Of a stretch of 38,412 bases of DNA, positions 8,969-37,835 are shown one piece after another. The first letter of the stretch is position 1. Each line of letters opens with the position of its first letter. The position numbers and the translations under genes are program-made. The notes under the pieces are model-generated. The model was not told the origin of the DNA, ran no database searches, and was given only the letters and a program-made list of their open reading frames with translations. Source of the DNA: Dehalococcoidia bacterium (lineage in GTDB: Bacteria; Chloroflexota; Dehalococcoidia; Lucifugimonadales; UBA3495); assembly GCA_027249445.1 (NCBI GenBank), contig JAPNTN010000049.1:1-38412 (forward strand), in the 5' to 3' direction.

Positions 8969-9607
8969 TTATAAACGATCGGCTGACAGTGGATCTGAAA
9001 CTCCTATCATACTATCTCTAGTTACTAGTGCAGCCAGAGACTCCTGATCCAAGGCTTCCGTTCCCGACGGCCTTCTAGGAATGACCATGTATCGCATATC
9101 TGCAGTACTATCAAGGACCCTTACCTCAACATCATCTGATAGTCGCAGCCCAAATTCTTCCATAACTTCCCTGGGGGAGACTACCACTCTAGATCTGTAC
9201 GCCAGACTCTTATACCAATCAGGAGGTCTCCCAAGTAGCATTCTTGGGTAACACGAACACAGAGTACAGACGACAACATGGTGAATAGAATCCGAATTTT
9301 CAACCACTTTTAAATAAGGCGTTTTGTCTGGAAGCTCGTATCCAATTTCCTTCAAAGCGTCAGATGCATTAGCCAACAGTCTGGTCTTAAACGACTCATC
9401 CGACCAGGCTAAAGCCACTATCTTTGCCCCATCAGCAGGTGACTTGCTGTCCATAGCATTCACCTCACGATCAATTTCCGCAGTCGTCATGACACCTTTT
9501 TCGACTAGTAACGTTTCAATCGCTTTGGCTCTCGAAGCGTAGTAACTTAATTGTACTTCCGTTTCAGGATCATGATTGCCATGATTTGTATGTTGATTAC
9601 TTGCCAT
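8969..9607 (-). CDS. nthA: nitrile hydratase family alpha subunit, cobalt type (equivalent to thiocyanate hydrolase gamma)
   Basis: 212 aa. Metal-binding claw VVVCTLCSCYP at nt 9251-9268 (CTLCSC is the Co type). Also PPDWYKSLAYRSRVV, DSTADMRYMVIPRRPSGTE and LVTRDSMIGV. Confidence 0.9.
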   Translation of the reverse strand: MASNQHTNHGNHDPETEVQLSYYASRAKAIETLLVEKGVMTTAEIDREVNAMDSKSPADGAKIVALAWSDESFKTRLLANASDALKEIGYELPDKTPYLKVVENSDSIHHVVVCTLCSCYPRMLLGRPPDWYKSLAYRSRVVVSPREVMEEFGLRLSDDVEVRVLDSTADMRYMVIPRRPSGTEALDQESLAALVTRDSMIGVSDPLSADRL

Positions 9608-9611
9608 TAAT

Positions 9612-9902
9612 TCAACCTTCGTTAATAGGGTTTAGCCAATGCTCATATATATCAATCAAGAGTTTGTCAGCAATGTTACCTGTATAGTCAGGCCATAAGT
9701 CTATCTGCATGAATTTTACAGTATAAAGAGTCTCAAGTGGATATCCGTCATACCCATAGGCCAACTTTTCAGGGTTCTTAAAACTACCACATACTGACTC
9801 AATGATCCCTGTACTACCTTGTATATATACTGGGGTCCTGTAATGTCCCAATGGAGAATCTATTCGGACCTTCACAATATCCCCAATTTTGAACTTCCCC
9901 AT
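9612..9902 (-). CDS. nitrile hydratase beta subunit, C-terminal half, as a separate polypeptide
   Basis: 96 aa. FKIGDIVKVR...GHYRTPVYIQGSTGIIE...LYTVKF...DIYEHWL matches the SH3-like C-terminal domain of NHase beta. It has its own AAGGA SD and ATG, 20 nt after the stop of the upstream ORF. Confidence 0.82.
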   Translation of the reverse strand: MGKFKIGDIVKVRIDSPLGHYRTPVYIQGSTGIIESVCGSFKNPEKLAYGYDGYPLETLYTVKFMQIDLWPDYTGNIADKLLIDIYEHWLNPINEG

Positions 9903-9922
9903 CTTATTTCCTTTGCAGTTAC

Positions 9923-10216
9923 TTAGCTTGGGGTATCAGACATTTTCTCATCTATCTCTGGGACAGACAAAAGTTCATTTTCTGTTACTAGGACTTCCAA
10001 GGCATGAGTCCATCGCTCGTAATACGTCATATGCTCATATTGATCCTTAGGTATACTTTCAATCACCCTTCGCATCTGATCCGTACTTCTTAATCCTTTA
10101 TTACCTAATACAGCGTGCATTGCGTCAACCCGGAGTTCCCAATCCATCATTTCATGTTCGTCCATATTGATTGGAGTATCATCCGGGAGTCCACCTCTGT
10201 CGTGTACACCTCTCAT
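9923..10216 (-). CDS. nitrile hydratase beta subunit, N-terminal half, as a separate polypeptide
   Basis: 97 aa starting MRGVHDRGG (beta N-terminal M-x-G-x-HD-x-GG). Also contains RRVIESIPKDQYEHMTYYERWTHALEVL, the helical beta core. AGGAG lies upstream. Confidence 0.78.
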   Translation of the reverse strand: MRGVHDRGGLPDDTPINMDEHEMMDWELRVDAMHAVLGNKGLRSTDQMRRVIESIPKDQYEHMTYYERWTHALEVLVTENELLSVPEIDEKMSDTPS

Positions 10217-20854: not shown

Positions 20855-21781
20855 TCATTTATGAAACAATGGCAGAATCTCTTGTCCCATCCTCTCCAAC
20901 TGCTCCATAGATTCAGTACCAGAACAAAGCGGACGTACAGCGAACTTAAATCCACCGGCGTCGATATATTTTTGAATCATCTCAGCAATTTGTTCCACAG
21001 TACCCAAGGCTGTAAATTCCGTGAAAGGCACATCTGGCCGATGACGCGTGACAAATTGATGAGATGTATTAACCGCATTTTCATAATCATCAGAAATATA
21101 AAATCCCAGCAACACTCCTATATGGTCCTCTTCAATTTCTCTATTGGCTTTATCTGCAGTATCAAAGACGACATTTCGTCCAAGACTAACCTCTTGTGGT
21201 GTCGCACTAGATACAAGCCAACCATCCCCTACACGACCTACCCGTCTAGCAGCTGCCATGCTTCTGCCACCGATCCAGACAGGGGGAGATGGTTTGAGGT
21301 AGGTTTTAGGAGTAATACTCACATCATGGCACGTAAAAAATTCACCTTCATACGTAACATTGTCTTCCTCCCACAACATACGCATCAAGCGAATGGCTTC
21401 ATCTGTACGACGTCCACGATCCCCTTTCGGAACACCACATGCTTCATACTCCCCAGGATCTTCTTGACCCAGACCAACTGCCGGAAAGAATCTCCCTTTC
21501 GACAAATAATCTAGAGTAGCTATCTGTTTGGCCAATATCACAGGGTTACGCAATGGCAGCGCCAAGACACTCGTTCCAAACTTCATCCGTTCCGAGTACG
21601 CCGCTATCATTGATAAAGCTACTATGGGTTCGAGATTAAAACTGTCGCTGACAATACGATCACTTAACCATATCGAATCATATTCATACCTATCGCCAAG
21701 ATCTACTAAGTCCTTCAAAAAATCAGGGTTATCACCGCCTTGACCAAAGGCTCCAGGAACGTATCCTATCGCTACACTCAT
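20855..21781 (-). CDS. LLM-class F420/flavin-dependent oxidoreductase
   Basis: 308 aa. YDSIWLSDR, LDYLSKGRFFPAVGLG, PPVWIGG, GDGWLVS motifs. GGGAGGG SD. Confidence 0.85.
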   Translation of the reverse strand: MSVAIGYVPGAFGQGGDNPDFLKDLVDLGDRYEYDSIWLSDRIVSDSFNLEPIVALSMIAAYSERMKFGTSVLALPLRNPVILAKQIATLDYLSKGRFFPAVGLGQEDPGEYEACGVPKGDRGRRTDEAIRLMRMLWEEDNVTYEGEFFTCHDVSITPKTYLKPSPPVWIGGRSMAAARRVGRVGDGWLVSSATPQEVSLGRNVVFDTADKANREIEEDHIGVLLGFYISDDYENAVNTSHQFVTRHRPDVPFTEFTALGTVEQIAEMIQKYIDAGGFKFAVRPLCSGTESMEQLERMGQEILPLFHK

Positions 21782-24107: not shown

Positions 24108-25283
24108 GTGGACTTTCAGTTTAGTCCAGAAGACGATCTATTCCGTCAAGAACTTCGAAGCTTTGTAAAGTCCCAACTACCGGACAACTGGGAAGGTGGG
24201 GGACGATGGCCAGAAGAATGGGACTGGGATTTCACCATGTCCCTTAGGGGAAAACTAGCTGAGAAAGGCTGGTTAACCATGCATTGGCCAAAAGAATACG
24301 GCGGTCAGGACGCATCTCCAATCAAATCTGCTATTTATAATGAAGAACTAGCTTACATGCGAGCTCCAGGCAGAGATATATTCGGGGTACGCATGCTAGG
24401 GCCAACATTGATGATCCATGGCACAGAAGAACAGAAGAAGGTTCATTTACCGCCTATATCGCGAGGTGAAATTCAGTGGTGTCAAGGATACAGTGAGCCC
24501 GAATCTGGCTCAGATTTAGCATCATTAGCTACAAGGGCTGTACTTGATGACGACGAATATGTATTAAATGGAACTAAGATATGGACTACGTTAGGACATA
24601 GGGCTGATTGGATATTTTGCCTGGCAAGAACCGACCCAGACGCACCTAAACACAGAGGCATAAGTTTCTTGTTGATTGACATGAAGAGTCCTGGTATAGA
24701 AGTCCGTCCAATAGTAAATATGGCAGGGGGACACGAGTTCAATCAAGTTATATTCGACAACGTTAGAGTTCCAAGAAGTAATATAGTTGGAGAAGAGAAT
24801 AAAGGTTGGTACGTCGCAGTCACTTTGTTAGATTTCGAGAGATCCGGAATAGATTATTCCGCTATGGCACATAGATTACTAGATGAAATACGAGATTATA
24901 CCAGTGAAACAAAGATAAATGGCGAAGTAATGTTAGACATACCATGGGTTCAGGACTTGCTAGCTGATAGGTATGTGGAATGCGAAGCTGCTAGATTAAT
25001 GGCCTACAACGTGGCATACCTGCAGGGAGAAGACCTAGTACCAAACAAGGAAGCCTCAATAAGTAAAGTCTTTGGCAGTGAAACTCTACAAAGAGTAACT
25101 GAATCCGCTTTAAAAATACTTGGCCCATATGGATCAATCGGTCGAAATGATAAATGGGCACCATTACGTGGAAGGATACAAGAACACTGGATGATAAGCT
25201 TTTCTCACAAACTTGCCGGTGGAACATCCGAGGTCCAACGTAACATAATTGCGGGACGTGGACTTGATCTACCTAGAGGTTAG
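24108..25283 (+). CDS. acyl-CoA dehydrogenase
   Basis: 391 aa, GTG start with AAGAGG upstream. WPKEYGGQ, QGYSEPESGSDLASL, LNGTKIWTT and GGTSEVQRNIIA motifs. Confidence 0.9.
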   Translation: MDFQFSPEDDLFRQELRSFVKSQLPDNWEGGGRWPEEWDWDFTMSLRGKLAEKGWLTMHWPKEYGGQDASPIKSAIYNEELAYMRAPGRDIFGVRMLGPTLMIHGTEEQKKVHLPPISRGEIQWCQGYSEPESGSDLASLATRAVLDDDEYVLNGTKIWTTLGHRADWIFCLARTDPDAPKHRGISFLLIDMKSPGIEVRPIVNMAGGHEFNQVIFDNVRVPRSNIVGEENKGWYVAVTLLDFERSGIDYSAMAHRLLDEIRDYTSETKINGEVMLDIPWVQDLLADRYVECEAARLMAYNVAYLQGEDLVPNKEASISKVFGSETLQRVTESALKILGPYGSIGRNDKWAPLRGRIQEHWMISFSHKLAGGTSEVQRNIIAGRGLDLPRG

Positions 25284-25609
25284 GCAGCAAACAACTGTAT
25301 TTCATCTTGAGAAATATTTACTTCAACATCCTCACGACACCTACGCATAATACGAAATATAGTCCTTACAGTCACTGAGAATTTATCTGCTGTTTGCTCA
25401 ACAGTAAGATTTTCATTTTTCATTGCGGATAATATTTTTAGATCCTTCGCTATTCTGCGGTTCTTCTGATACCAGGTAGGATCATCATATTTACACTGTG
25501 GAAGCGGGCATTTTAAACACGATGACGAAACCTCGCAACCCGTATCTTCATAATGATAAAACTCTGGGATTGAATCCAATTCAGGCTTAGATATAATCAT
25601 ACTAACCAT
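25280..25609 (-). CDS. small Cys4 + helix-turn-helix protein (putative transcriptional regulator)
   Basis: 109 aa. N-terminal C-x5-C-x2-C-x4-C (CEVSSSCLKCPLPQC). C-terminal HTH-like LTVEQTADKFSVTVRTIFRIMRR. AGGTG SD. Its stop overlaps the convergent ACAD stop by 4 nt. Confidence 0.6.
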   Translation of the reverse strand: MVSMIISKPELDSIPEFYHYEDTGCEVSSSCLKCPLPQCKYDDPTWYQKNRRIAKDLKILSAMKNENLTVEQTADKFSVTVRTIFRIMRRCREDVEVNISQDEIQLFAA

Positions 25610-25610: not shown

Positions 25611-25715
25611 TAGAACACCTCGAATATTTGTTCTATAGAACGTATGATCTTATTTTAGAACGCGCGTTCTATTACTGTCAATAGTTTTTGAGGCCAAATT
25701 AGCACTAGTGTTCTA
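25611..25715. promoter_or_regulatory. operator cluster: six TAGAAC/GTTCTA hexamers including two perfect palindromes
   Basis: TAGAAC at 25611, 25636 and 25656. GTTCTA at 25630, 25666 and 25710. They form GTTCTATAGAAC (25630-25641) and TAGAACGCGCGTTCTA (25656-25671) in the divergent intergenic region. Confidence 0.6.
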
Positions 25716-26604: not shown

Positions 26605-27597
26605 TTAATATTTGGTAGCAAATTCTGGAAGGACTTCTTTACCAAACATGTTTACAGCATTTAGTGATTCTTCGTTAGACATTCCAGGCCATTGGCAACG
26701 TAATATTAACTCTTGGATGCCAAGGTCCTGATATCTATATATTTCTCTAATGCAGTCATCAGGACTTCCAATGATAAACCTATCTTTCAAAACTTGGTCA
26801 AATTCAACATCTATGCGATCTGCTGAAGGCAATTCATTGCTATGCCCAGAGGCCGCTCTATCTTTGTACAGCCATTCCACATGAGGTCTAGCTATATCTA
26901 TCGCTTTTTCCCTAGTCTCAGCGATAAACATTTCTCTCCATGCAGAAATGTAAGGCTTTTTAGAATACTCTTCTGCGGCTCCATTATATAATTGGACTTG
27001 AGAGGAAATGGTAGTAATGGTAGATCTTGAACTAACTAACCACCCATCTCCCTGCCTGGCAGCTCTAACTACTCCACGATCCTGGTTCGCCGCTATGTAT
27101 ATGAGTGGATATGGTTCCTGTAAAGGCTTTCCAGCACCCGGTACATCATTAATATTGAAGTGATCTCCCTGGAACGTAACTCGTTCCTCAGTCCACAAAA
27201 GTTTCATGACCTTAAGAACTTCCCTAAATCGTGACAAGCGTTGATTCTTGGGTATGCCAAAACCGTCAAATTGATAGTCACGCCAACCAAGAGCAGGTGC
27301 CAAAATAAATCTTCCGCCACATATTACGTCTAACGTTGCTATCTGCTCAGCTACCTCGACAGGATGATATAGAGGAAGAAGTCCCACCATGCCTAGTTCC
27401 AACCCCGGAGCTTCAGCCGCTACTCTTGACAGTAACAACATTGGGTGAAAATCATTGTTCAGATACCCTGCTCCAGACCAGATCGAACTATACCCATACC
27501 TTTTAGCCAATCGAGATTTCTCTAATCGACCATTAAGTGATTCTTCTCTAGATTCATGAGGTAAGTTTCCACCGCCAAGATTTAATCCAAATTTCAT
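26605..27597 (-). CDS. LLM-class F420/flavin-dependent oxidoreductase
   Basis: ATG at 27597 (MKFGLNLGG) with GGAGAG 7 nt upstream. YSSIWSG, LDVICGGRFILAPALGW and GDGWLVSS motifs. Confidence 0.85.
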   Translation of the reverse strand: MKFGLNLGGGNLPHESREESLNGRLEKSRLAKRYGYSSIWSGAGYLNNDFHPMLLLSRVAAEAPGLELGMVGLLPLYHPVEVAEQIATLDVICGGRFILAPALGWRDYQFDGFGIPKNQRLSRFREVLKVMKLLWTEERVTFQGDHFNINDVPGAGKPLQEPYPLIYIAANQDRGVVRAARQGDGWLVSSRSTITTISSQVQLYNGAAEEYSKKPYISAWREMFIAETREKAIDIARPHVEWLYKDRAASGHSNELPSADRIDVEFDQVLKDRFIIGSPDDCIREIYRYQDLGIQELILRCQWPGMSNEESLNAVNMFGKEVLPEFATKY

Positions 27598-27662
27598 ACC
27601 ACAGCTCTCCACGGCAGATAACATCACAGGGCTAGATTATTCACCCCAAACATTATCTATTC

Positions 27663-29754: not shown

Positions 29755-29918
29755 CCATCCTCCATTTTCTGCATTAAACGAGAGCGAACGTAGTATATCT
29801 TATCGGATCATCGCTCTCAACAGATCCTTCATCACTACTCCCATTATTCTAGATCATTCAAAAAATCAAACGCCCCAACTACTATTAAGATGTTAAATAT
29901 TTGCACGCCTGTTTTATG

Positions 29919-29932
29919 TAGAATATATTCTA
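29919..29932. promoter_or_regulatory. perfect 14-bp palindrome TAGAATATATTCTA upstream of the B12-XRE regulator gene
   Basis: Lies in the 339-bp divergent AT-rich intergenic region. Same half-site family and N2 spacing as TAGAACAAGTTCTA at 31456-31469. It also reads as a -10-like TAGAAT on both strands. Confidence 0.45.
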
Positions 29933-30093
29933 TATATTGCCCAGTCATCAATCACGCCATTCGTGACTATTTCAAGCACAAAACAAACCGCACACTTCTT
30001 GCGTTTATAAAATATTTGTGTACAATATGGATAACATTGACGATGAACAAACACATCAAATACAGCTATCTATAGCACTGGAGGGACTCGTAT

Positions 30094-30972
30094 ATGAGTA
30101 CAGACGATTTAGTAACAACTAAACTGAGTGATCGTTACCTAGACGCTCTAATCCGGAGAGATCCCGACACCACGATATCTGTTATAGAAGATGCTATACG
30201 CCAAGGGCTGAGCCCAGTCAGTATACTGGTTTCAATCGTTGGCAAATCCCAGATTCGAGTCGGTGAAATGTGGCACACCGGTGAGATAAACATAGCGCAG
30301 GAGCATCTTGCAACCCAGATGACACTAGACGTTATGGACCAAATGAGACAGCGCTACCACGCTACCACGAAATGGGGAATCAAGGCAGTTGTAACATGCG
30401 TAGAAGGTAATTTCCATTACGTGGGATCCCGAATGATCGCAGACCTTTTACTAGTAGACGGATGGGACGTTGAATTCCTAGGAGCAGACACACCAACTCA
30501 CGATTTAGTTGAGTTCGTACGCCAGGGCCACCCCGAACTTGTCGCCTTATCCGTTTCTATGAAAGAAGACCTTAGTACAGCAGAGCAAATAATCACGCAA
30601 TTGAGAAGACTGCCCGATTCACCCAGAATATTACTAGGAGGATACGGCGTTACCGATACCGATCAAGTTGAGGGACTTGGACCGGACGGATTTGCCATCG
30701 ACGCATACAGTGCAATCCAGGAGGCTCGCCGCCTTGGAGGACTCTCAAAGGATCCTTTAAGTCTAAATGAATACTTAATAGTGATGGGCTCCAGAGTACA
30801 GGATTTGAGAAAAGGAAGAAGTTGGAATCAAGAACAATTAGCCCAAGCCTCTTCATTGGACAGAACCTACATAAGTGCCGTCGAGAACGGGAAACAGAAC
30901 CTGACGATCGGGGTAGTCTTAAAACTTGCCGAGGCCTTAGAAGTACCCATCGGACAGCTCCTTTCAGACTAA
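30094..30972 (+). CDS. CarH-like cobalamin-binding photoreceptor module fused to a C-terminal XRE-family HTH (putative light-responsive transcriptional regulator)
   Basis: 292 aa with GGAGGG SD. W60-x9-E70-H71 (WHTGEINIAQEH, nt 30271-30306). B12 Rossmann domain with EGNFHYVG (His108, nt 30415-30417), VALSVSM and ILLGG. C-terminal Cro/C1 HTH QEQLAQASSLDRTYISAVENGKQNLT (about nt 30763-30966). Confidence 0.8.
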   Translation: MSTDDLVTTKLSDRYLDALIRRDPDTTISVIEDAIRQGLSPVSILVSIVGKSQIRVGEMWHTGEINIAQEHLATQMTLDVMDQMRQRYHATTKWGIKAVVTCVEGNFHYVGSRMIADLLLVDGWDVEFLGADTPTHDLVEFVRQGHPELVALSVSMKEDLSTAEQIITQLRRLPDSPRILLGGYGVTDTDQVEGLGPDGFAIDAYSAIQEARRLGGLSKDPLSLNEYLIVMGSRVQDLRKGRSWNQEQLAQASSLDRTYISAVENGKQNLTIGVVLKLAEALEVPIGQLLSD

Positions 30973-30992
30973 CTCCATTCCTTTTGCAACTT

Positions 30993-31030
30993 CACAGAGA
31001 GGATAATTCTTATGGAATGTCCTCTCTGTG
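30993..31030. terminator. 11-bp inverted repeat between convergent genes (possible bidirectional terminator)
   Basis: CACAGAGAGGA-N16-TCCTCTCTGTG, with an inner ATTC/GAAT pairing. It lies between the stops at 30972 (+) and 31038 (-). No strong U-tract. Confidence 0.45.
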
Positions 31031-31037
31031 AATCACC

Positions 31038-31232
31038 TTACGCAGCTTTCCTACGAGGCCTACGGCGACGAACCTGCTCAGGTATAAATACGTTCTCATC
31101 GATTTCCTGAGGCTCAGATACTGTCCCAGCGAAATAACGACCGCATTGAACACACGTTACAAACGGACCAAAACTATCCCTGCTCTCATATAGATCTCCC
31201 TTACATTTCTGACACGACTTAAACCAGAACAC
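31038..31232 (-). CDS. small zinc-ribbon protein with Arg-rich C-terminal tail
   Basis: 64 aa, GTG start with GAGGTGA SD. CQKC-x16-CVQC zinc ribbon. Tail RRRRPRRKAA. Confidence 0.6.
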   Translation of the reverse strand: MFWFKSCQKCKGDLYESRDSFGPFVTCVQCGRYFAGTVSEPQEIDENVFIPEQVRRRRPRRKAA

Positions 31233-31380
31233 TTCTCACCTCTCTTCAGCAGGTCTGTATATTTTGGATTCACCCGCTAAATCTATTTCGGACTTGCCTT
31301 ATCTCTACACCTACACAGATCATCTGTTTTTAATTTAATGTCTAACAAATCCTACGTTTCAACCAATTTGTACGATATAG

Positions 31381-31410
31381 TTGACAAACAAGTCCTTAGA
31401 TGTCTAGAAT
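31381..31410 (+). promoter_or_regulatory. near-consensus sigma-70-type promoter (TTGACA-18 nt-TAGAAT) facing the DUF378...photolyase genes
   Basis: TTGACA at 31381-31386 and TAGAAT at 31405-31410. The next downstream gene starts at 31586. Confidence 0.5.
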
Positions 31411-31423
31411 AATACACATAACG

Positions 31424-31469
31424 TAGAACACTGTCAACATTTAAGTTAATTAATGTAGAACAAGTTCTA
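31424..31469. promoter_or_regulatory. operator-like sites: TAGAAC (31424-31429) and palindrome TAGAACAAGTTCTA (31456-31469)
   Basis: Located just downstream of the putative -10. Same half-site as the 25.6-kb cluster. TAGAAC is followed by ACTGTCAA (31430-31437), an octamer also present at 25674-25681 next to GTTCTA. Confidence 0.5.
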
Positions 31470-31585
31470 TAAAAACTAATAAAGAACTGTAATCAGTGAA
31501 AGGAGATATTTATAAACACCAGGTGTTCCACAATTAACGACACAAGGTTGTATAACTTAATCTACATAAATGAAAGGACATAATT

Positions 31586-31783
31586 ATGACAATGGTGCAA
31601 AACATAGCAATTATTCTCGCAGCCGTAGGGGCGCTCAATTGGGGTTTGGTGGGCTTGTTTAAATTTGACTTGGTGGCCCTCATTGCGGGAGGCAAATCAT
31701 TTGGAGAAGTAAATATTCTATCTAGGATCATCTATCTGCTAGTAGCAGTATCGGGCGTTGTAGCAGTAACAACCTTAGCTTGA
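31586..31783 (+). CDS. DUF378-family small membrane protein
   Basis: 65 aa. AAVGALNWGLVGLFKFDLVA is the characteristic DUF378 motif. Two TM helices. AAAGGA SD. Confidence 0.75.
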   Translation: MTMVQNIAIILAAVGALNWGLVGLFKFDLVALIAGGKSFGEVNILSRIIYLLVAVSGVVAVTTLA

Positions 31784-31839: not shown

Positions 31840-32079
31840 ATGGACATAAGAGAGATAAATACATTAATCATAAAAACTCGCACTTCAATGAGTGACCTTA
31901 TAAATAAATGGGAAAGGTTTATGGTCTCTCGAAAAGCACCTCCTCGCAGAGTTCTAGACCCGTTAAACGTATTGAGTCCAAGTTTGCCTGCTGTAATTGC
32001 ACGCTCCACCAGAAGAATAAACGACCCTAGCTTAACGTTGGCGGAAGCTGAAATTCTGGGAAGGATAAACCTATCATGA
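31840..32079 (+). CDS. hypothetical protein (79 aa), no recognisable family
   Basis: AAAGGAG SD 8 nt upstream of the ATG. Basic, Pro/Arg-rich centre (SRKAPPRRVLDP). Co-oriented within the putative operon. Confidence 0.55.
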   Translation: MDIREINTLIIKTRTSMSDLINKWERFMVSRKAPPRRVLDPLNVLSPSLPAVIARSTRRINDPSLTLAEAEILGRINLS

Positions 32080-32132: not shown

Positions 32133-32333
32133 ATGACAGACAACAACATGGAAATTGGCACATGGACACAATTAGCTGAATCGCTTTACGAATTCCTTAA
32201 TCGCAGAGGAACCACTATCGAATACACCTTTGCTGATATGGAAGTTATGGTACCTAAATCTACCGGCGCAGATGCTCCTCAGGCACGTTGGAATTTGAAT
32301 GGGAGTGTAAGACTCCGCACCTGGGAGTCGTAA
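32133..32333 (+). CDS. hypothetical small protein (66 aa), possibly amphi-Trp-domain-like
   Basis: ATG at 32133 has AAGGAG 7 nt upstream. The ORF track starts at 32076, overlapping the previous stop as ATGA. Trp near both ends (GTWTQLAESLYEFL ... VRLRTWES) and a beta-rich centre. The family call is from memory and tentative. Confidence 0.5.
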   Translation: MTDNNMEIGTWTQLAESLYEFLNRRGTTIEYTFADMEVMVPKSTGADAPQARWNLNGSVRLRTWES

Positions 32334-32338
32334 ACATA

Positions 32339-32710
32339 GTGATAGATGTTAAAAATGAACGTTTTAATGTGACTGGAACCGTGCGAGTAGAAATAGATGA
32401 AATGACCAGCAACATTACCGGAACAGGAAACGTCATAGACATAGAACTGTCACTAGTAGACAAAATTTTGACCCATTGGGGTAGGAAACTACCCCAAAAG
32501 TCAAAAAATCTTTCTGATGCCAGTGAAGTGCTTAAACGCACTGGATTGACTGTCAGGGTTCTCAACAATAACAAGCCAATAGTGATCGTAGGAGAACAAG
32601 CTAAACCTGGATTGTTAAATAAAATATTTAAATCAAGAAACATTCAATGGAAACCAAATTTGGCTTTGATCAAATTTGCCCTGAAACATAAGAAGCAAAA
32701 GCAGTTTTAA
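32339..32710 (+). CDS. hypothetical protein (123 aa), beta-rich N-terminal half, Lys-rich C-terminus
   Basis: In-frame GTG at 32339, 5 nt after the previous stop, with GGGAG about 11 nt upstream. The TTG at 32288 in the ORF track would overlap the previous gene by 46 nt. No family recognised. Confidence 0.5.
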   Translation: MIDVKNERFNVTGTVRVEIDEMTSNITGTGNVIDIELSLVDKILTHWGRKLPQKSKNLSDASEVLKRTGLTVRVLNNNKPIVIVGEQAKPGLLNKIFKSRNIQWKPNLALIKFALKHKKQKQF

Positions 32711-32733: not shown

Positions 32734-33918
32734 ATGAAATGGACTATTCTAGACGCCGACAAAACAGTATTGGATCCTTCTGGAGTCGATGCCTTTATTG
32801 ATCGGATGGATAAAGAACTACGAGCAGGAGGTCCACCGCTTGAGGGCTTCAAGTCTCTCTATTCCAGTCAAGAGATGCTTCAAATCACACGTGAAATAGA
32901 AAATGAAATAACGAAAGTGCCTGATTCCCAATCAACTCTATATGTCGGTTTTCAAACAGTGGATAAATTCCTAAACGAGACTGAGAGATATACGTACATG
33001 AGCACGTTGGGAATTCCGGTAGTTGGTTTTGGTCAAGGTAACGTGCCTGACCAGAACAACGTTCCCGCAGAACAATGGGTATCATTACCAACTGATTTAT
33101 TAGCTTTTGAAAACCAGTGGTACTTAATATCGGCATCACCAAACCCCATAATATTTATAGGTTGGGAAACATCTAGTCCTGAGCTTTTCGGGCTAGGCGG
33201 GATCTCTACAGAAGGAAAAGAATTCCGTGGATTTGTCTCAAATGACGAGAGAATAATTGATGCCGCGATAAATTATCTCGAGCGAGTTAGGAAACAGAAT
33301 GGTCCTACAGCTTCCCTGCCCCTAATGCAGCTATCCGAGGAAATACCTTTTCCGATTAGTCGCATCATGATGGTGACTGACGATAATCAAAATGAACAAA
33401 TTGACTCAATGCGTAAAGAGATAAGTTCGTTCGCAGCAGAAAATGAAGCTTACGTTATGTTATATGACATTTCAGCAGCATCATATTTAGTGAATCCATA
33501 TCCGTCAGGAGAAGTAGAAAAAACTTCCACTAAAGTCTTACATACTCAAGATCTAGGTTTAATGGGGAGACAGTATCTTGTTGAGCAGCTGGACCATCTT
33601 AATAATAATGAACTATGTGCCGGAGTAATATTAGCGACTGAGCACGGGTTCAAACATCTAGCGGAATGGGCTGAAAGCGAAAACGCGGACCTGATTATGA
33701 TTCCGCAGAGCTTGGTCAACCCCGGACTAATTGACCGGATAAAGGGCTATACTCTTCGAAAGTTGCTTGAAGCCACAACTATTCCCATCATTGTGTATAA
33801 GGATTCGACATCGTCATGGATGCGAACACGCAAAGTGTTTAAATCTAATGCTGATATGGATCATCAACTAAATGTATCTGATTACCCAACACCAAAAGCG
33901 GTTAGCCCACTAGCATGA
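32734..33918 (+). CDS. DICT sensory domain protein with C-terminal universal-stress-protein (USP)-like domain
   Basis: 394 aa with GGGAG SD. The DICT pattern has three segments: LQITREIENEI...LYVGFQTVDKFLNETERYTYMSTLGIPVVGFG; QWYLISASPNPIIFIGWE; FRGFVSNDERIIDAAINYLE. The C-terminal half runs RIMMVTDD...ADLIMIPQS...LLEATTIPIIVY, like a USP fold lacking the ATP-binding Gly motif. Confidence 0.7.
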   Translation: MKWTILDADKTVLDPSGVDAFIDRMDKELRAGGPPLEGFKSLYSSQEMLQITREIENEITKVPDSQSTLYVGFQTVDKFLNETERYTYMSTLGIPVVGFGQGNVPDQNNVPAEQWVSLPTDLLAFENQWYLISASPNPIIFIGWETSSPELFGLGGISTEGKEFRGFVSNDERIIDAAINYLERVRKQNGPTASLPLMQLSEEIPFPISRIMMVTDDNQNEQIDSMRKEISSFAAENEAYVMLYDISAASYLVNPYPSGEVEKTSTKVLHTQDLGLMGRQYLVEQLDHLNNNELCAGVILATEHGFKHLAEWAESENADLIMIPQSLVNPGLIDRIKGYTLRKLLEATTIPIIVYKDSTSSWMRTRKVFKSNADMDHQLNVSDYPTPKAVSPLA

Positions 33919-33950: not shown

Positions 33951-35426
33951 ATGCAACCGCAACCAGTAATAGTATGGTTTAGGAACGATCTGCGCTTGGA
34001 AGGCAATCTAGCTCTAAGCGCAGCTCTAGCCTCTCAAAAACCTGTTATCCCAGTATTTATATGGAACGACAAGTCAAGTGATTGTACTTTTAACGGCCCT
34101 CATTCTGAACGATGGCTTGGAGTTTCCTTGCGACATTTGTCAGATTCATTAAATCACCTGGGTTCTCGTCTAATTATCAGGACAGGATATGCCCCTAAAG
34201 AGCTTCGCGACCTGGCCTCGGAAACACACGCTGATCATGTCTATTTTAACGAAAGATACGAACCCTCTGAAATACAAACACAGAGTTTGGTCGAAGAAGC
34301 TCTAAGGCCACAGAATATCGTATTGAAAGCATTCAACTCTAATTATTTATTTGATCCAAGGACTATATATAAAGCTAACAATCATCCTTATAAAAAGTTC
34401 GGCGCATTTTGGAAACATTGTTTAACGCTACAAGAACCAAACCCACTGCCTCTGCCACTGAGGTCCGAACAATTTTCGAGTCCTATGCTGTGGCCTAATA
34501 CAGTCCAACTCACAGAAATGAACGAAGGTTCAAGTTTTAGGGAAGTATCATGTATAAAACCAATGTGGACCCCCGGGGAGGCATCCTCCAATAGAAAACT
34601 TAAAGAATTTCTCCTAACTTCATACGAATATTACTCCGAAAATAGAGAGCGTTCAGATATTACTGGAACGTCGATGCTATCGCCCCACTTAAGCTTCGGA
34701 GAAATAGGACCGACTCAGATACTCCAAGAACTAGACCAACAAAAGCTGAAGGCAACAGCTTCAGTAACTTTACATGAAGACAAATTCATTACAGAACTAG
34801 GCTGGAGAGAGTTCGCTAACTACATCATTACGCATTTTCCCGCATCTAATAGCGAACCAAGCAATACAGTTCTCGATCATTTCATCTGGGACGATAATAA
34901 ATACCACTTAACTGCTTGGCAATCAGGGGAGACGGGTTACCCCATAATCGACGCAGCAATGAGACAGCTTAAAAGCACTGGCTGGATGAATAATAGGCTT
35001 CGCATGGTCGTGGCATCTTTCTTAATCAAGAATTTACTTATACCATGGCAGAAGGGGGCAGAGTGGTTCTCTTACTTATTGGTAGATGCCAACGAGGCAA
35101 GTAATAATTTAGGATGGAAATGGATAGCAGGGTGCGGGACCGACTCATCACCCTATTTTAGGATCTTTAATCCACTGACACAATCTCAAAAAACCGACCA
35201 TGATGGATCATTTATCCATCAATGGATACCTGAATTATCTCAATTAGCTGAGCCCTGGATTCACCATCCATGGTTAGCACCCATAGATGTATTACAAAGA
35301 GCGCAGATCAGTTTAGATGTAGATTATCCAAGGCCTATTGTTGATTACAAAACATCCCGCATTCGTAGTTTAGCTGCATATAAGCAAGCTAAACTACTTT
35401 ACGATCTGGAGAGAAAACACAATTGA
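33951..35426 (+). CDS. phrB: deoxyribodipyrimidine photo-lyase (class I CPD photolyase / cryptochrome-photolyase family)
   Basis: 491 aa. VWFRNDLRL N-terminus, LSPHLSFGEI, GWREFANYI, TGYPIIDAAMRQLKSTGWMNNRLRMVVASFL, GWKWIAGCGTDSSPYFRIFNP. Confidence 0.93.
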   Translation: MQPQPVIVWFRNDLRLEGNLALSAALASQKPVIPVFIWNDKSSDCTFNGPHSERWLGVSLRHLSDSLNHLGSRLIIRTGYAPKELRDLASETHADHVYFNERYEPSEIQTQSLVEEALRPQNIVLKAFNSNYLFDPRTIYKANNHPYKKFGAFWKHCLTLQEPNPLPLPLRSEQFSSPMLWPNTVQLTEMNEGSSFREVSCIKPMWTPGEASSNRKLKEFLLTSYEYYSENRERSDITGTSMLSPHLSFGEIGPTQILQELDQQKLKATASVTLHEDKFITELGWREFANYIITHFPASNSEPSNTVLDHFIWDDNKYHLTAWQSGETGYPIIDAAMRQLKSTGWMNNRLRMVVASFLIKNLLIPWQKGAEWFSYLLVDANEASNNLGWKWIAGCGTDSSPYFRIFNPLTQSQKTDHDGSFIHQWIPELSQLAEPWIHHPWLAPIDVLQRAQISLDVDYPRPIVDYKTSRIRSLAAYKQAKLLYDLERKHN

Positions 35427-35622: not shown

Positions 35623-37092
35623 ATGTCTAATACCAGCATAACCAGAAATCACCGGATATTAGTAACAGGAGCAACGGGCTACATTGGCGGCAGATTAGTC
35701 CCAATGTTGGAAAAAATGGGGTATAGCGTTCGGTGTTTTGCGAGAAATTCAGATTCCCTTGCATCAAAAGTATCGCAAAACACCGAAATCATATCGGGGG
35801 ATATGCTAAGTTCCCAATCGATTGAACATGCTATGAATGGAATTGATACAGCATTTTATCTAGTCCACTCGATGGGGTCAGCTAAATCCTTTATGGATCT
35901 AGAAACAGAATGTGCTAGGAATTTTGCCTATGCTGCTAAATCTGCTGGGATCAGACGAATAATCTATCTTGGTGGCCTTGGCGAATCAACTAAGAAGTTA
36001 TCGCCGCACCTACTGAGCAGGCAGGAAGTAGGGTCGATATTAAGAGAATCAGAGGTCCCCGTTATTGAATTCAGAGCATCCGTCATTGTTGGATCAGGCA
36101 GCTTATCTTTCGAGTTAGTCCGCAGCCTAGTAGAACGTTTGCCAGTAATGATAACTCCCAGATGGGTCTCAACCCCATCGCAACCAATATCAATAGACGA
36201 CGTACTCAAATATCTAATAGAAAGCATCGAATTGCCGAAATACGAAGATATAATCGTAGAAATTGGAGGTGCAGAAATAATGTCCTACGGGCAAATCATG
36301 AAAGAGTACGCCCGACAGAGAGGACTAAAACGCCTCATGTTAGCAGTACCTGTCCTGACTCCTAGACTGTCCAGTCTGTGGCTGGGACTCGTCACTCCCG
36401 TTTATGCTCGAATAGGGCGCAAACTAATCGATAGCATGAGATATCCCAGTGTAGTTAATAGCACCACAGCACAACATTATTTCAACCTTATACCAAGTGG
36501 TGTTACTGATGCCATTAGTAAAGCACTAGAAGATGAAGATCGAGACTTTGCCGAAACGCGATGGTCTGACGCCCAATCTTCTTCAGGTCCGATCAAACAT
36601 TGGGGAGGAGTAAGGTTTGGACCAAGACTACTCGATATGCGAAGGATAAGTGTCTCTGTGGGACAGCAAGAGGCATTTATACCAATACAACGTATTGGCG
36701 GTCGACAAGGATGGTACTACGGAAATTGGTTGTGGCAGATACGTGGATTCCTAGACCTATTATTTGGAGGCGTTGGTATTCGTAGAGGTCGTAAACACCC
36801 TGAAACCATTACTGTGGGTGACACTATAGATTGGTGGCGGGTAGAGGCGTACGAACCATTCCAACGACTTCTACTGATTGCCGAGATGAAAGTCCCGGGA
36901 CGTGCATGGTTAGAATTCCAAGTAAGTCAGAAGGAAAATGAGACCATACTAACCCAAACCGCAATCTTTGATCCCGTAGGAGTAGGAGGATTGTTGTATT
37001 GGTACGCACTGTACCCGCTTCATAACTTAGTTTTCTCTGGCATGATAAACAATATCGGCCGGTACATCCAACTGCATAAAGAGGACTTATGA
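35623..37092 (+). CDS. NAD(P)H-binding SDR-like domain fused to a DUF2867 domain
   Basis: 489 aa. ILVTGATGYIGGRLV Rossmann start. The C-terminal ~150 aa (WRVEAYEPFQRLLLIAEMKVPGRAWLEFQV) are typical of DUF2867. Confidence 0.78.
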   Translation: MSNTSITRNHRILVTGATGYIGGRLVPMLEKMGYSVRCFARNSDSLASKVSQNTEIISGDMLSSQSIEHAMNGIDTAFYLVHSMGSAKSFMDLETECARNFAYAAKSAGIRRIIYLGGLGESTKKLSPHLLSRQEVGSILRESEVPVIEFRASVIVGSGSLSFELVRSLVERLPVMITPRWVSTPSQPISIDDVLKYLIESIELPKYEDIIVEIGGAEIMSYGQIMKEYARQRGLKRLMLAVPVLTPRLSSLWLGLVTPVYARIGRKLIDSMRYPSVVNSTTAQHYFNLIPSGVTDAISKALEDEDRDFAETRWSDAQSSSGPIKHWGGVRFGPRLLDMRRISVSVGQQEAFIPIQRIGGRQGWYYGNWLWQIRGFLDLLFGGVGIRRGRKHPETITVGDTIDWWRVEAYEPFQRLLLIAEMKVPGRAWLEFQVSQKENETILTQTAIFDPVGVGGLLYWYALYPLHNLVFSGMINNIGRYIQLHKEDL

Positions 37093-37835
37093 AAAACACG
37101 AGCGGCACGTTAATTTTGGGTGCTAGCGGAGGTATCGGATCTACTCTGGCTAGGACTTTAAGAGATCAAGAGGAACACCTTGTGTTAGCTGGACGAGATT
37201 CTACAACCCTAAGAGAACTTGGAGCCGAACTTGACTCTAAAATTATCATAATCGGATCCATGGATATTGAATCTATTAGTAAAGCGTATACAGAGGCCGA
37301 AGAGGTATTAGGTTCTCTGTATGGGACTGTAAACTGTATAGGATCATCTCTCCTAAAACCATCCCACACAATATCATCTGAGCAGTGGCAGGACATCGTG
37401 GATACTAACCTTACCAGTGCTATGGGTACTGTAAAAGGCGCATCCAGAGTTATGATGAAAAGAGGCGGTTCGATTGTATTAATAGCAGCCGCTTGCGGTA
37501 GAATAGGAATGGCCTACCACGACGCGATCAGCGCGACTAAAGCAGGCGTCATAGGGCTGACATTATCTGCTGCTGCAACATACTCAACCAAGGGAATACG
37601 GGTCAACTGTGTAGCTCCTGGACTCATAGATACGCCCATGACTTCTCCAATCACAGGAAATGAAATCGCATTGCGCTCATCTGAGTCTATACACCCTATT
37701 TCCAGAATAGGACAACCATATGAGGTAGTATCAGCAATCACCTGGCTATTAGACAGGCAGAATACATGGGTCACAGGGCAAGTAATCGGAGTAGATGGAG
37801 GGCTTGGGTCCGTACTGAAAAGGACCACTACATGA
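37089..37835 (+). CDS. SDR-family oxidoreductase, atypical active-site region
   Basis: 248 aa. The ATG overlaps the upstream stop (ATGA). LILGASGGIGSTLA, NCIGS and IRVNCVAPGLIDTPM motifs. The canonical Ser...YxxxK positions read IAAACG...AISATK. Confidence 0.8.
   Translation: MKNTSGTLILGASGGIGSTLARTLRDQEEHLVLAGRDSTTLRELGAELDSKIIIIGSMDIESISKAYTEAEEVLGSLYGTVNCIGSSLLKPSHTISSEQWQDIVDTNLTSAMGTVKGASRVMMKRGGSIVLIAAACGRIGMAYHDAISATKAGVIGLTLSAAATYSTKGIRVNCVAPGLIDTPMTSPITGNEIALRSSESIHPISRIGQPYEVVSAITWLLDRQNTWVTGQVIGVDGGLGSVLKRTTT

Follow-up and report, generated by a model that had tools for sequence, protein, structure and literature searches.

The gene at 30094..30972 of the window (the whole stretch of DNA analysed, 38.4 kb) encodes a 292-aa regulator, in which a CarH-type cobalamin module is followed by a C-terminal XRE helix-turn-helix (HTH) domain. 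The protein is probably, at roughly 60%, an AdoCbl-dependent photoreceptor repressor, whose dark-state oligomer would be released by light and which would work like CarH with a different build. The regulator is a member of a large and widespread family and not a one-off. At 50% identity, the proteins of this architecture formed at least 150 clusters, and they occurred in at least 158 species genomes, mostly of marine Dehalococcoidia and also of other bacteria. Furthermore, the architecture, the HTH and the operator were conserved across phyla.

Domain Architecture of the Regulator

The gene and its three domains were located as follows.

30094..30972, + strand: regulator gene, 292 aa, ATG start with a GGAGG ribosome-binding site 8 nt 5' of it; supported by three Pfam matches, the AF2 model and a full-length family
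30130..30339, + strand: four-helix-bundle cap (residues 13-82, PF02607), containing G57xxW60, H61 and E70-H71
30382..30663, + strand: Rossmann-type cobalamin-binding domain (residues 97-190, PF02310), containing G105xxH108 and G130xxxP134
30799..30957, + strand: XRE/Cro-C1 HTH DNA-binding domain (residues 236-288, PF01381), with the recognition region LDRTYISxVExGKQN

The Pfam matches from the N- to the C-terminus were B12-binding_2 (48.8 bits, cut-off 23), B12-binding (60.4 bits, cut-off 32.1) and HTH_3 (49.1 bits, cut-off 23). All three exceeded their cut-offs, in the order that the initial annotation of this DNA had predicted. HTH_19, HTH_31 and HTH_26 were further HTH matches. No MerR domain was present among the Pfam matches, and HTH_3 at residues 236-288 was the sole DNA-binding domain. 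The AF2 model, a monomer, was confident (mean pLDDT 89.3), with the HTH helices at residues 224-241, 246-253, 257-264 and 272-282 and a linker of roughly 10 residues (215-223) before them. The sequence elements read by eye in the initial annotation were also recovered: W60-x9-E70-H71 lay at nt 30271-30306 as it had been placed, and EGNFH108YVG, VALSVSM, ILLGG and the C-terminal QEQLAQASSLDRTYISAVENGKQNLT were all found in the 292-aa translation. Its proposal that a CarH-type cobalamin module is combined with a C-terminal XRE HTH replacing the N-terminal MerR domain was borne out by the HMMs, the alignment with CtMerR and TtCarH, the fold and the layout of the family.

The arrangement had also been taken to be uncharacterised. 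In agreement with this, the literature searched on CarH or cobalamin photoreceptors together with XRE domains contained no paper describing a cobalamin-XRE photoreceptor and no experimental characterisation of such a protein. The closest that this literature came was an in-silico remark in PMC11796333, according to which cobalamin domains bearing the signature occur joined to HTH domains at one or the other terminus.

Cobalamin Module and Comparison with Known Photoreceptors

The light-responsive signature of SignatureFinder (PMC11796333), whose validation as a predictor covers a handful of proteins, was complete in the regulator, with G57xxW60, E70H71, G105xxH108 and G130xxxP134 representing the motifs GxxW, EH, GxxH and GxxxP. 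In a residue-level alignment, these motifs were in register with the crystallographically defined G153, W156, E166, H167, G201, H204 and G226 of CtMerR, the solved structure that matched the regulator best in sequence (E 3e-21). The predicted lower axial ligand H108 (codon 30415-30417) aligned with H204 of CtMerR and with the His177 motif GerH of TtCarH. Moreover, W60-H61 and E70-H71 aligned with the WH...EH residues of TtCarH, where H61 follows W60 as H132 follows W131. Among 82 family members, W60 and E70 were invariant, and H71, P134, H108 and H61 were conserved in 99%, 99%, 98% and 83% (68/82), respectively.

The fold was in agreement with the alignment. The top Foldseek matches of the regulator model were exclusively light-sensing cobalamin proteins, namely the photocobilins, CtMerR and TtCarH. 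The cobalamin domain of CtMerR was the best structural counterpart of the cobalamin module, with a TM of 0.86 and an rmsd of 2.4 Å, and that of TtCarH matched with a TM of about 0.82. The photocobilins gave the top E-values and strong sequence matches. Their full-length alignments to the regulator, calculated with 8j2w, had an rmsd of about 14 Å, indicating that the match was confined to the cobalamin module. In addition, the NCBIfam CarH equivalog NF052513, which has a cut-off of 400, reached 68.9 bits and aligned only over model positions 82-260, the cobalamin part.

CarH/LitR proteins, such as those from T. thermophilus, M. xanthus and B. megaterium (CarH), are MerR-type AdoCbl photoreceptor repressors and have the cobalamin module in common with the regulator, including W-x9-EH, the lower-ligand His of GxxH, GxxxP and the His after Trp (the His132 equivalent). 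However, CarH/LitR proteins possess an N-terminal MerR winged helix, while the regulator has a C-terminal XRE/Cro-C1 HTH. CtMerR from Chloracidobacterium thermophilum (PDB 8JBS/8JBT; PMC11796333) contains all the signature residues of the regulator, but it carries an N-terminal MerR domain and has Arg at the position of H61. The photocobilins SasPcob and AbDPcob (PDB 8J2W/X/Y; PMC10979010) resemble the regulator in that an N-terminal light-responsive cobalamin domain is joined to a different C-terminal output module. In the photocobilins this module binds biliverdin and in some cases is accompanied by a diguanylate cyclase, whereas the C-terminal 65 residues of the regulator form the HTH, and Gln or Tyr occupies their His132 position. 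The H132A variant of TtCarH is reported to bind DNA without being released by light. The dissociation of the CarH tetramer requires His132 (PMC10442372). CtMerR, which is without a His132 equivalent, underwent a light-induced structural change but did not monomerise under the conditions tested (PMC11796333), and the light-state behaviour therefore varies across the superfamily. From the homology to these proteins, we infer that the regulator would bind AdoCbl and undergo its photolysis, and that its oligomeric state would be CarH-like. AerR and other short cobalamin-binding antirepressors of CrtJ/PpsR likewise combine a CarH-like cobalamin domain with light-dependent gene control and have no MerR domain. 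AerR is without a DNA-binding domain and acts via a partner repressor, while the regulator has its own HTH and a conserved operator.

HTH Domain and Predicted Family Operator

The recognition region LDRTYISxVExGKQN was invariant throughout the family, from which a conserved operator was predicted, and one was found. The nearest solved relatives of the HTH were the restriction-modification (R-M) controller proteins C.AhdI, C.BclI and C.Esp1396I (E 5.5e-9 to 2e-5), and SinR was also among its PDB relatives. R-M C proteins bind cooperatively to two neighbouring dyad operators, forming a dimer of dimers. Compared with the regulator, the three controllers are small stand-alone HTH proteins without a sensor domain, and their cooperativity is intrinsic and not cofactor-dependent.

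The family operator, derived from homologue loci spanning ±8 kb, consisted of a pair of 18-bp dyads, TGTWGW-N6-WCWACA, whose starts were 31-33 bp apart and which overlapped promoter hexamers. Paired dyads with starts 31 or 32 bp apart were present in 34 aligned intergenic regions. The operator PWM was trained on homologue loci only, with the window excluded. Among 44 untrained loci, the best dyad pair of the whole locus lay within 400 bp upstream of the regulator in 34, with about 1.1 expected, and in most of the exceptions the best pair headed the operon containing the regulator. The inner half-sites coincided with -35-like hexamers, and therefore the conservation of the operator could partly be conservation of the promoter. 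The outer TGT/ACA triplets, which were 90-100% conserved, are not promoter hexamers. The CarH operator reportedly consists of tandem 11-bp direct repeats overlapping the promoter, which differs from the paired 18-bp inverted repeats of the regulator. The overlap with the promoter is common to both systems, as are the predicted dark-state repression and the photolyase-type genes nearby.

Predicted Operators in the Window

The following sites were predicted in the two intergenic regions that flank the regulator gene; none is assigned to a strand.

29917..29934: operator dyad TGTAGA-ATATAT-TCTATA before the regulator, best PWM match in the window (16.0 bits)
30019..30036: second dyad TGTACA-ATATGG-ATAACA, third best PWM match (11.9 bits), conserved in L002
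31339..31471: five dyads from the PWM scan, at 31339-31356, 31369-31386, 31401-31418, 31422-31439 and 31454-31471
31549..31566: dyad TGTATA-ACTTAA-TCTACA, second best PWM match in the window (12.5 bits)

The top five PWM matches in the 38.4 kb all fell within these two regions, and the window sites had P ≤ 0.003 against composition-matched shuffles. The dyad at 29917..29934 overlapped the -10-like TATATT (29924-29929) of a promoter-like site at 29900-29929. In L002, a 93%-identical homologue locus, the dyad carried a symmetric double change, from TAGAAT..ATTCTA to TCGAAT..ATTCGA. Together with the upstream dyads conserved across phyla, this change gave comparative support to the prediction that the XRE HTH recognises dyad-symmetric operators. 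For the dyad at 30019..30036, the distance was 102 bp to the first dyad and 58 bp to the downstream ATG of the regulator. A partner at 31-33 bp was sought for these two upstream dyads and none was found, so that they stand as two isolated dyads.

The second intergenic region contained six PWM matches against 0.38 expected in dinucleotide shuffles (P < 0.001), and 3.3 kb of control non-coding DNA contained none. The family spacing of 32 bp occurred twice in the 31339..31471 cluster (31369 with 31401, and 31422 with 31454), including the best 32-bp pair of the window. The cluster overlapped divergent promoter-like sites, with TTGACA at 31381 and TAGAAT at 31410 on the + strand, and TTGACA at 31437 and TATTAT at 31409 on the - strand. 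Compared with L002, the sites of the cluster were conserved islands. The dyad at 31549..31566, 20 bp upstream of the DUF378 start codon, was perfectly conserved in L002, while its flanks had diverged.

Three palindromes had originally been proposed as operators of the XRE domain. Two of them, at 29919-29932 and 31456-31469, proved to be the cores of 18-bp dyads and were the only perfect matches to TAGAAYNNRTTCTA in the 38.4 kb, with 0 in 100 shuffles. This 14-mer itself was rejected as the family operator, being present in the window and in L001 and absent from 78 other loci, including the 93%-identical L002. The third palindrome, at 25630-25671, was rejected as an operator of the system. Its TAGAAC-GCGC-GTTCTA symmetry is real, but its half-sites are spaced 2 bp further apart, and the PWM gave no match there. 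An inverted-repeat scan with a 40-nt limit found nothing at this position, and the symmetry was seen by eye.

Neighbouring Genes and Possible Regulon

The genes and the hairpin downstream of the regulator were as follows.

30991..31032, no strand: perfect hairpin with 13-nt arms and 100% complementarity, between the convergent regulator and Zn-ribbon genes
31038..31232, - strand: Zn-ribbon-like ORF, 64 aa with two CxxC pairs, divergent from the operator cluster
31586..31783, + strand: DUF378 small membrane protein, 65 aa (Pfam PF04070, 69.1 bits), predicted target
32734..33918, + strand: 394-aa DICT-like protein (Pfam PF10069, 23.8 bits, exactly the cut-off), possible regulon member
33951..35426, + strand: DNA photolyase (Pfam DNA_photolyase and FAD_binding_7), possible regulon member
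35623..37092, + strand: NmrA-like/DUF2867 protein (Pfam), possible regulon member
37089..37835, + strand: SDR (Pfam), possible regulon member

Related Dehalococcoidia dominate the neighbour counts given here, which lack phylogenetic independence. Of 80 loci, 44 had a DUF378 homologue adjoining the regulator gene, and in about 40 of these the two genes were divergent and shared an operator region of 90-150 bp. The conserved target thus differs from that of CarH/LitR, for which it is carotenoid genes. A literature search on the function of DUF378 gave nothing relevant. An AcrB-type transporter was found downstream of the regulator in 25 loci. CobT (DBI_PRT) directly followed the regulator on the same strand in 9 loci, and CobS and CobU were found in 9 and 8, respectively. 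The two commonest neighbours, DUF378 and the AcrB-type transporter, are without a known link to light.

The regulator had been described as lying next to a photolyase-containing gene block. The photolyase is present at 33951..35426 on the same strand, but the conserved partner is DUF378, and about 6 of 80 loci had a photolyase no more than 5 kb from the regulator. No strong PWM site was found directly 5' of the DICT-photolyase block (32734), which was separated from DUF378 by some 500 bp of DNA that looks non-coding. For these two reasons, control of the photolyase in the window is no more than possible. The DICT-like protein had no NCBIfam match and no PDB sequence match; its homologues were near the regulator in 8 loci. 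In two loci (L005 and L022), an NmrA/DUF2867 homologue and the regulator were together in an operator-headed operon. Moreover, the census was enriched in genes of light and photo-oxidative responses, namely photolyase, DUF523/DUF1722 (YbgA-like), NmrA/DUF2867, ERG4/ERG24-like, ChrR-like cupin and SRPBCC genes.

The Zn-ribbon ORF was conserved in L001 and L002, and partial homologues were beside DICT-like genes in four other loci. In L034, an operator pair was in front of a Zn-ribbon/DICT-like gene pair. Profile searches gave no family assignment for this ORF or for a 140-aa ORF. The hairpin at 30991..31032 is probably a bidirectional terminator. The terminator scan, in which no qualifying T-run was present, did not call it.

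Proposed Mechanism and Alternative Explanations

In the preferred reading, AdoCbl would be held by the N-terminal four-helix bundle and the Rossmann domain, with H108 as the lower axial ligand and the adenosyl group capped by W60 and E70. The C-terminal XRE HTH would read the 18-bp dyads TGTWGW-N6-WCWACA. In the dark, cofactor-dependent oligomers would offer several HTH domains to the dyads over the -35/-10 hexamers. The most economical oligomer would be a tetramer, whose four HTH domains would serve two dyads spaced by three helical turns. The genes shut down by this binding would be those of the regulator itself, of DUF378 and of the divergent Zn-ribbon protein, and probably, in this and other genomes, photolyase, YbgA-like, NmrA/DUF2867, SDR and DICT-like genes. 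Light would cleave the Co-C bond, after which H61, the His132 equivalent, would become the upper ligand of cobalt. The oligomer would disassemble and no longer bind cooperatively, and expression of the genes would follow. The direction of regulation, like the cofactor chemistry, is a prediction here. A more specific claim is put forward tentatively: the regulator may be the prototype of a distinct class of B12 photoreceptor transcription factor, in which four XRE HTH domains assemble cooperatively on two palindromes, separated by three helical turns, under the control of a CarH-type AdoCbl module.

Alternatively, the regulator might be a true B12 photoreceptor with a logic other than that of CarH, acting for example as a constitutive XRE dimer in which a conformational change alters DNA affinity or looping without tetramer disassembly, or as a light-dependent activator or anti-activator. 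XRE domains normally dimerise by themselves, and one dimer suffices per dyad. The isolated dyads 102 bp apart and the cluster of five or six sites map poorly onto one tetramer. Furthermore, the light response of CtMerR without monomerisation, under the conditions tested, and the other output modes of the photocobilins are consistent with such a logic. However, the near-fixed pairing of dyads at 31-33 bp across phyla suits four DNA-binding domains in one oligomer, the overlap with the -35 and -10 of divergent promoters is the usual position of a repressor, and the conserved His132 equivalent indicates a CarH-like light state. A non-CarH logic is considered unlikely.

The regulator might also sense the availability of cobalamin, so that corrinoid occupancy and not photolysis controls cobalamin remodelling or transport and membrane genes, and light sensitivity is incidental. 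This explanation appears quite improbable. The strictest conservation was at W60, E70, H71 and G57, which cap the 5'-deoxyadenosyl group and mark light-responsive domains as opposed to enzyme-type ones. The His132 equivalent, needed solely for the light state, was kept in most members. Photolyase, YbgA-like and related genes recurred nearby and in operator-headed operons. In addition, no cobalamin gene or riboswitch was found in the window, where the Rfam scan gave only two tRNAs. What speaks for an availability sensor is the CobT, CobS and CobU genes and the AcrB-type transporter near the regulator in the loci counted above, and the inherent B12 dependence of CarH-type proteins. Many Dehalococcoidia inhabit waters below the photic zone, which also counts in its favour.

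That the protein belongs with enzymes, as a corrinoid carrier in a methyltransferase system or some other B12 protein of that kind, with an HTH by chance and no sensory role, would fit its sub-threshold NCBIfam matches to MtbC, MtgC and MtaC-type proteins, at 52-68 bits with cut-offs of 215-420, and the JGI automatic names of relatives ('methanogenic corrinoid protein MtbC1/DNA-binding XRE family transcriptional regulator'), but it is highly implausible, with scores of 45-68 bits against cut-offs of 215-450 (MtbC/MttC/MtaC/MtgC), methyltransferase partner genes absent from the window and the neighbour census, photoreceptors as the top structural matches, and a cross-phylum conservation of architecture, HTH and operator that argues for selection on DNA binding.

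Implications

Apart from the MerR-type CarH/LitR proteins, the B12 photoreceptors studied so far comprise a few relatives that do not bind DNA (AerR and photocobilins). If the photoreceptor reading is true, the regulator would be a second natural coupling of the AdoCbl light switch to DNA, different in fold, in terminus (the opposite one) and in operator (palindromes instead of direct repeats), and would show the modularity of the switch. It would also provide an orthogonal green-light repressor/operator pair for optogenetics. With the operator model and the target list, the hypothesis is testable using one purified protein and a 50-bp DNA fragment.

If the distinct class is real, its conserved output would be the uncharacterised membrane protein DUF378, a family that would gain its first functional context, with a membrane function induced by light. 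The cobalamin nucleotide-loop genes CobT/S/U would belong to the output as well in some lineages, a sign that photolysed cofactor may be replaced in response to light. The regulator is an indication of light sensing in marine Dehalococcoidia/SAR202, which are abundant and uncultured, and the class, if real, would be the main, hitherto unrecognised light-sensing system of these bacteria and of scattered other phyla.

Domain architecture of the regulator

The regulator gene was located exactly where the initial annotation had placed it, and three Pfam domains were found in its product.

30094..30972, + strand: regulator ORF, 292 aa, ATG start, GGAGG before the start
Regulator residues 13-82: B12-binding_2 domain (Pfam, 48.8 bits)
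Regulator residues 97-190: B12-binding domain (Pfam, 60.4 bits)
Regulator residues 236-288: HTH_3 domain (Pfam, 49.1 bits)

The domains occurred in the predicted order, each above its gathering score, and the Pfam scan found no MerR domain. The earlier proposal of a light-sensing module with a non-MerR helix-turn-helix (HTH) at the opposite end was right in its essentials. In the translation, residues 60-71 read W-HTGEINIAQ-E-H, the W-x9-EH claimed from the sequence, and the EGNFH108YVG, VALSVSM and ILLGG motifs and the C-terminal Cro/C1-type HTH were each found. The NCBIfam CarH equivalog scored 68.9 bits against a cut-off of 400, and its match was confined to the cobalamin part.

Light-sensing signature and predicted fold

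With the regulator sequence as the query, the top match among solved structures was the CtMerR cobalamin domain (8JBS/8JBT, E 3e-21). The photocobilins 8J2W/X/Y were also among the best matches, and T. thermophilus CarH/LitR (TtCarH) was matched at about 1e-11. Methyltransferase corrinoid proteins and methionine synthase had lower scores. The light-response signature GxxW, EH, GxxH and GxxxP, together with the AdoCbl contacts of each element, was defined in the CtMerR structure paper (PMC11796333). The corresponding residues of the regulator were G57xxW60, E70-H71, G105xxH108 and G130xxxP134, which sat on CtMerR G153/W156/E166/H167/G201/H204/G226 in an ungapped HMMER alignment and on TtCarH VGEaWH...EEH...GerH...GpDTP in a second alignment. 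The regulator thereby has the full set of sequence motifs that define a light-responsive cobalamin domain. Moreover, H61 directly followed the Trp, in the same place as TtCarH His132, which is the upper ligand once photolysed and is required for tetramer dissociation (PMC10442372). This position is Arg in CtMerR and Gln or Tyr in the photocobilins, whereas it is His in the regulator, which at this residue is nearer to CarH than CtMerR, its best sequence match, is.

The AlphaFold2 model (82-sequence alignment) was confident, with a mean pLDDT of 89.3 and a pTM of 0.72. It placed a four-helix bundle at 3-87 and a Rossmann domain at 97-214, followed after a short linker by the HTH at 224-282. In the Foldseek search against the PDB, light-sensing cobalamin domains ranked first, with a TM of 0.86 (2.4 Å) for CtMerR and about 0.82 for the TtCarH cobalamin domain.

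Family distribution and conservation

The regulator is one of a family whose spread and definition go beyond what the initial annotation could see. A word-indexed search found 209 relatives, nearly all about 290-310 aa long and sharing its three Pfam domains; their automatic names, where given, included 'cobalamin-dependent protein' and 'methanogenic corrinoid protein MtbC1/DNA-binding XRE family transcriptional regulator'. Furthermore, at least 150 clusters (50% identity) matched full-length at E<=1e-65 in a profile search of 1.84 billion representatives. In GTDB contigs (one genome per species), a relative was encoded in 158 species, mostly marine Dehalococcoidia/Chloroflexota, SAR202 included. 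Other carriers were Planctomycetota (with Ca. Uabimicrobium amorphum), Fimbriimonadales, Bipolaricaulia, Fraserbacteria, Latescibacterota, Myxococcota and more. The protein of one Dehalococcoidia MAG (L001) was 98% identical to the window regulator, which assigns the window to an organism of this kind.

Among 82 family members, G57, W60, E70 and the HTH recognition region LDRTYISxVExGKQN were invariant, H71, H108 and P134 were each at least 98% conserved, and H61 was kept in 83%. In the family alignment, one member (P0006) carried NPLDL in place of GxxH, with no lower-ligand His, and retained W-x9-EH and the HTH. This member may be a naturally B12-independent form comparable to Myxococcus CarA.

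Operator derived from homologue loci

Since the recognition helix was invariant, a conserved operator was predicted. The 14-mer TAGAAYNNRTTCTA, put forward in the initial annotation, did occur exactly twice in the window (29919-29932 and 31456-31469; 0 in 100 shuffles), but it was missing upstream of the homologues, even at the 93%-identical L002. The de novo search used 34 short intergenic regions, colinear with one another, that separate the regulator from a divergently transcribed DUF378 gene. Element A (TGTTGTATAtTAaTAACA) lay about 20 nt past the DUF378 RBS, element B (TGTCTAtnATAtTCtACA) came after it with a start-to-start distance of 31 or 32 bp, and the regulator start codon was about 25-40 nt beyond element B. 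Both elements were 18-bp dyads of the form TGTWGW-N6-WCWACA. The -35-like hexamers coincided with the inner half-sites, and the -10-like hexamers of two face-to-face divergent promoters with the dyad centres. The outer TGT/ACA triplets were 90-100% conserved though outside the promoter elements, which argues against promoter conservation alone and for a predicted protein-binding dyad.

For cross-validation, a PWM trained on the 34 loci was applied to 44 others. In 34 of these 44 loci (about 1.1 expected by chance), the best locus-wide pair at 31-33 bp was found no more than 400 bp ahead of the regulator, usually around -100. In most of the remaining loci, the pair headed an operon in which the regulator came later (L005, L022, L074, L076, L078); at L034 it stood immediately before Zn-ribbon and DICT-like genes, and at L004 it was some 6 kb upstream of the regulator, beside SDR and DUF2878 genes.

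In some genomes (L053, L007, L036, L063), GC-rich long repeats were inserted between the operator pair and the regulator start codon, and in every one of them the operator remained beside DUF378. In L053, a unit of roughly 48 bp was repeated in tandem about 15 times in the intergenic region upstream of the regulator (about 7200-8000), and L063 and L036 had palindromic CATTCCGGCGAAAGCCGGAATCC-like units.

Candidate operator sites in the window

The window was excluded from PWM training. Its five best matches in 38.4 kb all fell within the two intergenic regions flanking the regulator gene.

29917-29934: predicted dyad, 16.0 bits
31549-31566: predicted dyad, 12.5 bits
30019-30036: predicted dyad, 11.9 bits
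31369-31386: predicted dyad, 11.7 bits
31401-31418: predicted dyad, 11.2 bits

Weaker matches began at 31339, 31454 and 31422. Single matches this strong also arise in shuffled windows; therefore, the clustering is the evidence. The DUF378-side region held 6 matches at threshold compared with 0.38 in dinucleotide shuffles (P<0.001), the regulator-side region 2 compared with 0.09 (P=0.003), and 3.3 kb of other non-coding window DNA none. The family-type 32-bp spacing was found in two pairs, 31369+31401 and 31422+31454. Dyads overlapped two promoter-like sites, TTGACA (31381) ... TAGAAT (31410) on the + strand toward DUF378 and TTGACA (31437) ... TATTAT (31409) on the - strand toward the Zn-ribbon ORF, and dyad 29917-29934 covered the -10-like TATATT in the promoter-like site of the regulator itself. 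In the comparison with L002, the six DUF378-side sites were all conserved islands amid diverged spacers, and the regulator-side dyad showed a symmetric change from TAGAAT..ATTCTA to TCGAAT..ATTCGA. By PWM matches and L002 conservation, the palindromes first noticed at 29919-29932 and 31456-31469 are the cores of operator candidates.

The dyads upstream of the regulator (29917-29934 and 30019-30036) were isolated and 102 bp apart, unlike the family norm, and neither had a partner dyad at 31-33 bp. This could imply DNA looping, or weaker autoregulation needing just a dimer.

The third operator proposed earlier, 25630-25671, was rejected as a site of this regulator: the half-site spacing of TAGAAC-GCGC-GTTCTA differs, and the PWM gave no match. 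It belongs to a symmetry cluster at 25611-25670, with TAGAAC-N13-GTTCTA and a perfect TAGAAC-GCGC-GTTCTA at 25655-25670, flanked on one side by a 109-aa ORF without a family match (25280..25609, -) and on the other by the gene for an enoyl-CoA hydratase (25723, +). The cluster is probably the operator of another regulator, of acyl-CoA genes.

Neighbouring genes and predicted regulon

31038-31232, - strand: Zn-ribbon-like ORF, 64 aa, divergent from the same operator cluster as DUF378
31586..31783, + strand: DUF378, 65-aa membrane protein, downstream of the regulator
32288-32710, + strand: 140-aa ORF, coding-like substitutions compared with L002
32734-33918, + strand: DICT-like protein, 394 aa, Pfam match just at the cut-off
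Downstream of the DICT-like gene, + strand: DNA photolyase (neighbour annotation)
Downstream of the photolyase, + strand: NmrA/DUF2867 protein, then SDR (neighbour annotation)

DUF378 is the regulator's conserved partner: it adjoined the regulator in 44 of the 80 loci compared, divergently in about 40, and these included Bipolaricaulia, Latescibacterota and 'Thermotogae'-labelled MAGs. The window departs from this layout: DUF378 lies downstream of the regulator, having moved there together with the operator cluster. Homologues of the DICT-like, Zn-ribbon, NmrA/DUF2867 and DUF523/DUF1722 (YbgA-like) proteins occurred in operator-headed operons of other genomes, and the wider census added photolyase, ERG4/ERG24-like reductase, ChrR-like cupin, SRPBCC and epimerase/DUF1731. 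The LitR and sigmaE-ChrR regulons comprise light and singlet-oxygen responses, which this neighbour set may recall; we take this as a lead. In the window, the DICT-photolyase block had no strong PWM site before it, and DUF378 was followed by about 500 bp of non-coding-like DNA, so direct control of the photolyase is only putative here.

The Zn-ribbon-like ORF (about 60 aa) and the DICT-like protein (about 390 aa) co-occurred near the regulator in 8 loci (e.g., L034 9099-10411, L058, L079, L005). The DICT-like protein, for which no NCBIfam or PDB sequence match was found, may provide the regulon with a second sensor. The 140-aa ORF, with no Pfam or NCBIfam match, overlapped an opposite-strand ORF (32260-32643, -); substitutions compared with L002 at codon positions 1:2:3 were 34:16:52 in the + frame and 14:33:46 in the - frame, a coding pattern in the + frame alone. 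Region 31840-32079 had a non-coding look. The regulator and Zn-ribbon genes converge, and their stop codons were separated by a perfect inverted repeat (30991-31032; 13-nt arms, 16-nt loop), a likely bidirectional terminator despite having no T-run.

The cobalamin nucleotide-loop genes CobT and CobS (and CobU) came after the regulator in 8-9 loci. CobT lay about 84 bp downstream on the same strand, followed by CobS with CobU nearby (L059 8885-9898, L039 10576-11358, L037 12312-12896; six to eight similar loci), which suggests that cofactor salvage is co-expressed with the B12-dependent regulator. The second commonest neighbour (25 loci, e.g., L051 4110-7349) was an AcrB/AcrD/AcrF-family transporter about 1040 aa long. 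In most cases it came directly after the regulator in the same orientation, and it had no obvious link to light; its adjacency may be synteny among related Dehalococcoidia.

Elsewhere in the window, a nitrile hydratase cluster (8969-10216, -) had its beta subunit split into two ORFs beside the alpha subunit.

9923..10216, - strand: nitrile hydratase beta, N-terminal ORF
9612..9902, - strand: nitrile hydratase beta, C-terminal ORF
8969..9607, - strand: nitrile hydratase alpha subunit

Two acyl-CoA dehydrogenases, the enoyl-CoA hydratase and four luciferase-like monooxygenase paralogues (12991-14043, 17327-18493, 20855-21781, 26605-27627) were also present; expansion of the latter is typical of SAR202-type Dehalococcoidia, in line with the taxonomic placement given by L001.

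Relation to known systems and proposed mechanism

The feature is real, and its first reading was correct in essentials. That reading had held the arrangement to be uncharacterised; in agreement, our literature and family-model search, in which subscription-journal reviews were thinly covered and an earlier in-silico mention is possible, found no experimental work, curated family model, or description of the operator, regulon or DUF378 link. The closest was an in-silico remark in the 2024 SignatureFinder paper, which reported from a similarity network that signature domains are fused to HTH at either terminus (PMC11796333). Although likened to CarH in its inferred working, the regulator should not be filed under CarH/LitR, because it lacks both a MerR domain at the N-terminus and an operator of direct repeats, two features that define that family; its predicted operator consists of paired dyads, and it is an XRE-family HTH protein.

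The analysis showed the architecture, signature residues, fold, family, operator candidates, promoter overlap and gene associations. The reading with the best support is a switch of the CarH kind that reads DNA through a different head. Of three rivals, a photoreceptor with other oligomer logic, or an activator, carries the most weight. A B12-availability sensor comes second, and the CobT/S/U adjacency speaks for it. An enzyme-type corrinoid carrier is very unlikely.

For the CarH-like switch, we infer cofactor binding, photochemistry, stoichiometry and sign of regulation as follows. In the dark, an oligomer would be stabilised by AdoCbl held under the W60/E70 cap, with H108 as the lower ligand. 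A pair of dyads provides four half-sites, three helical turns apart, which would fit a tetramer with four HTH domains, and this tetramer would occlude both promoters. Once light had broken the Co-C bond, H61 would ligate the cobalt and the oligomer would disassemble, by which the genes would be derepressed.
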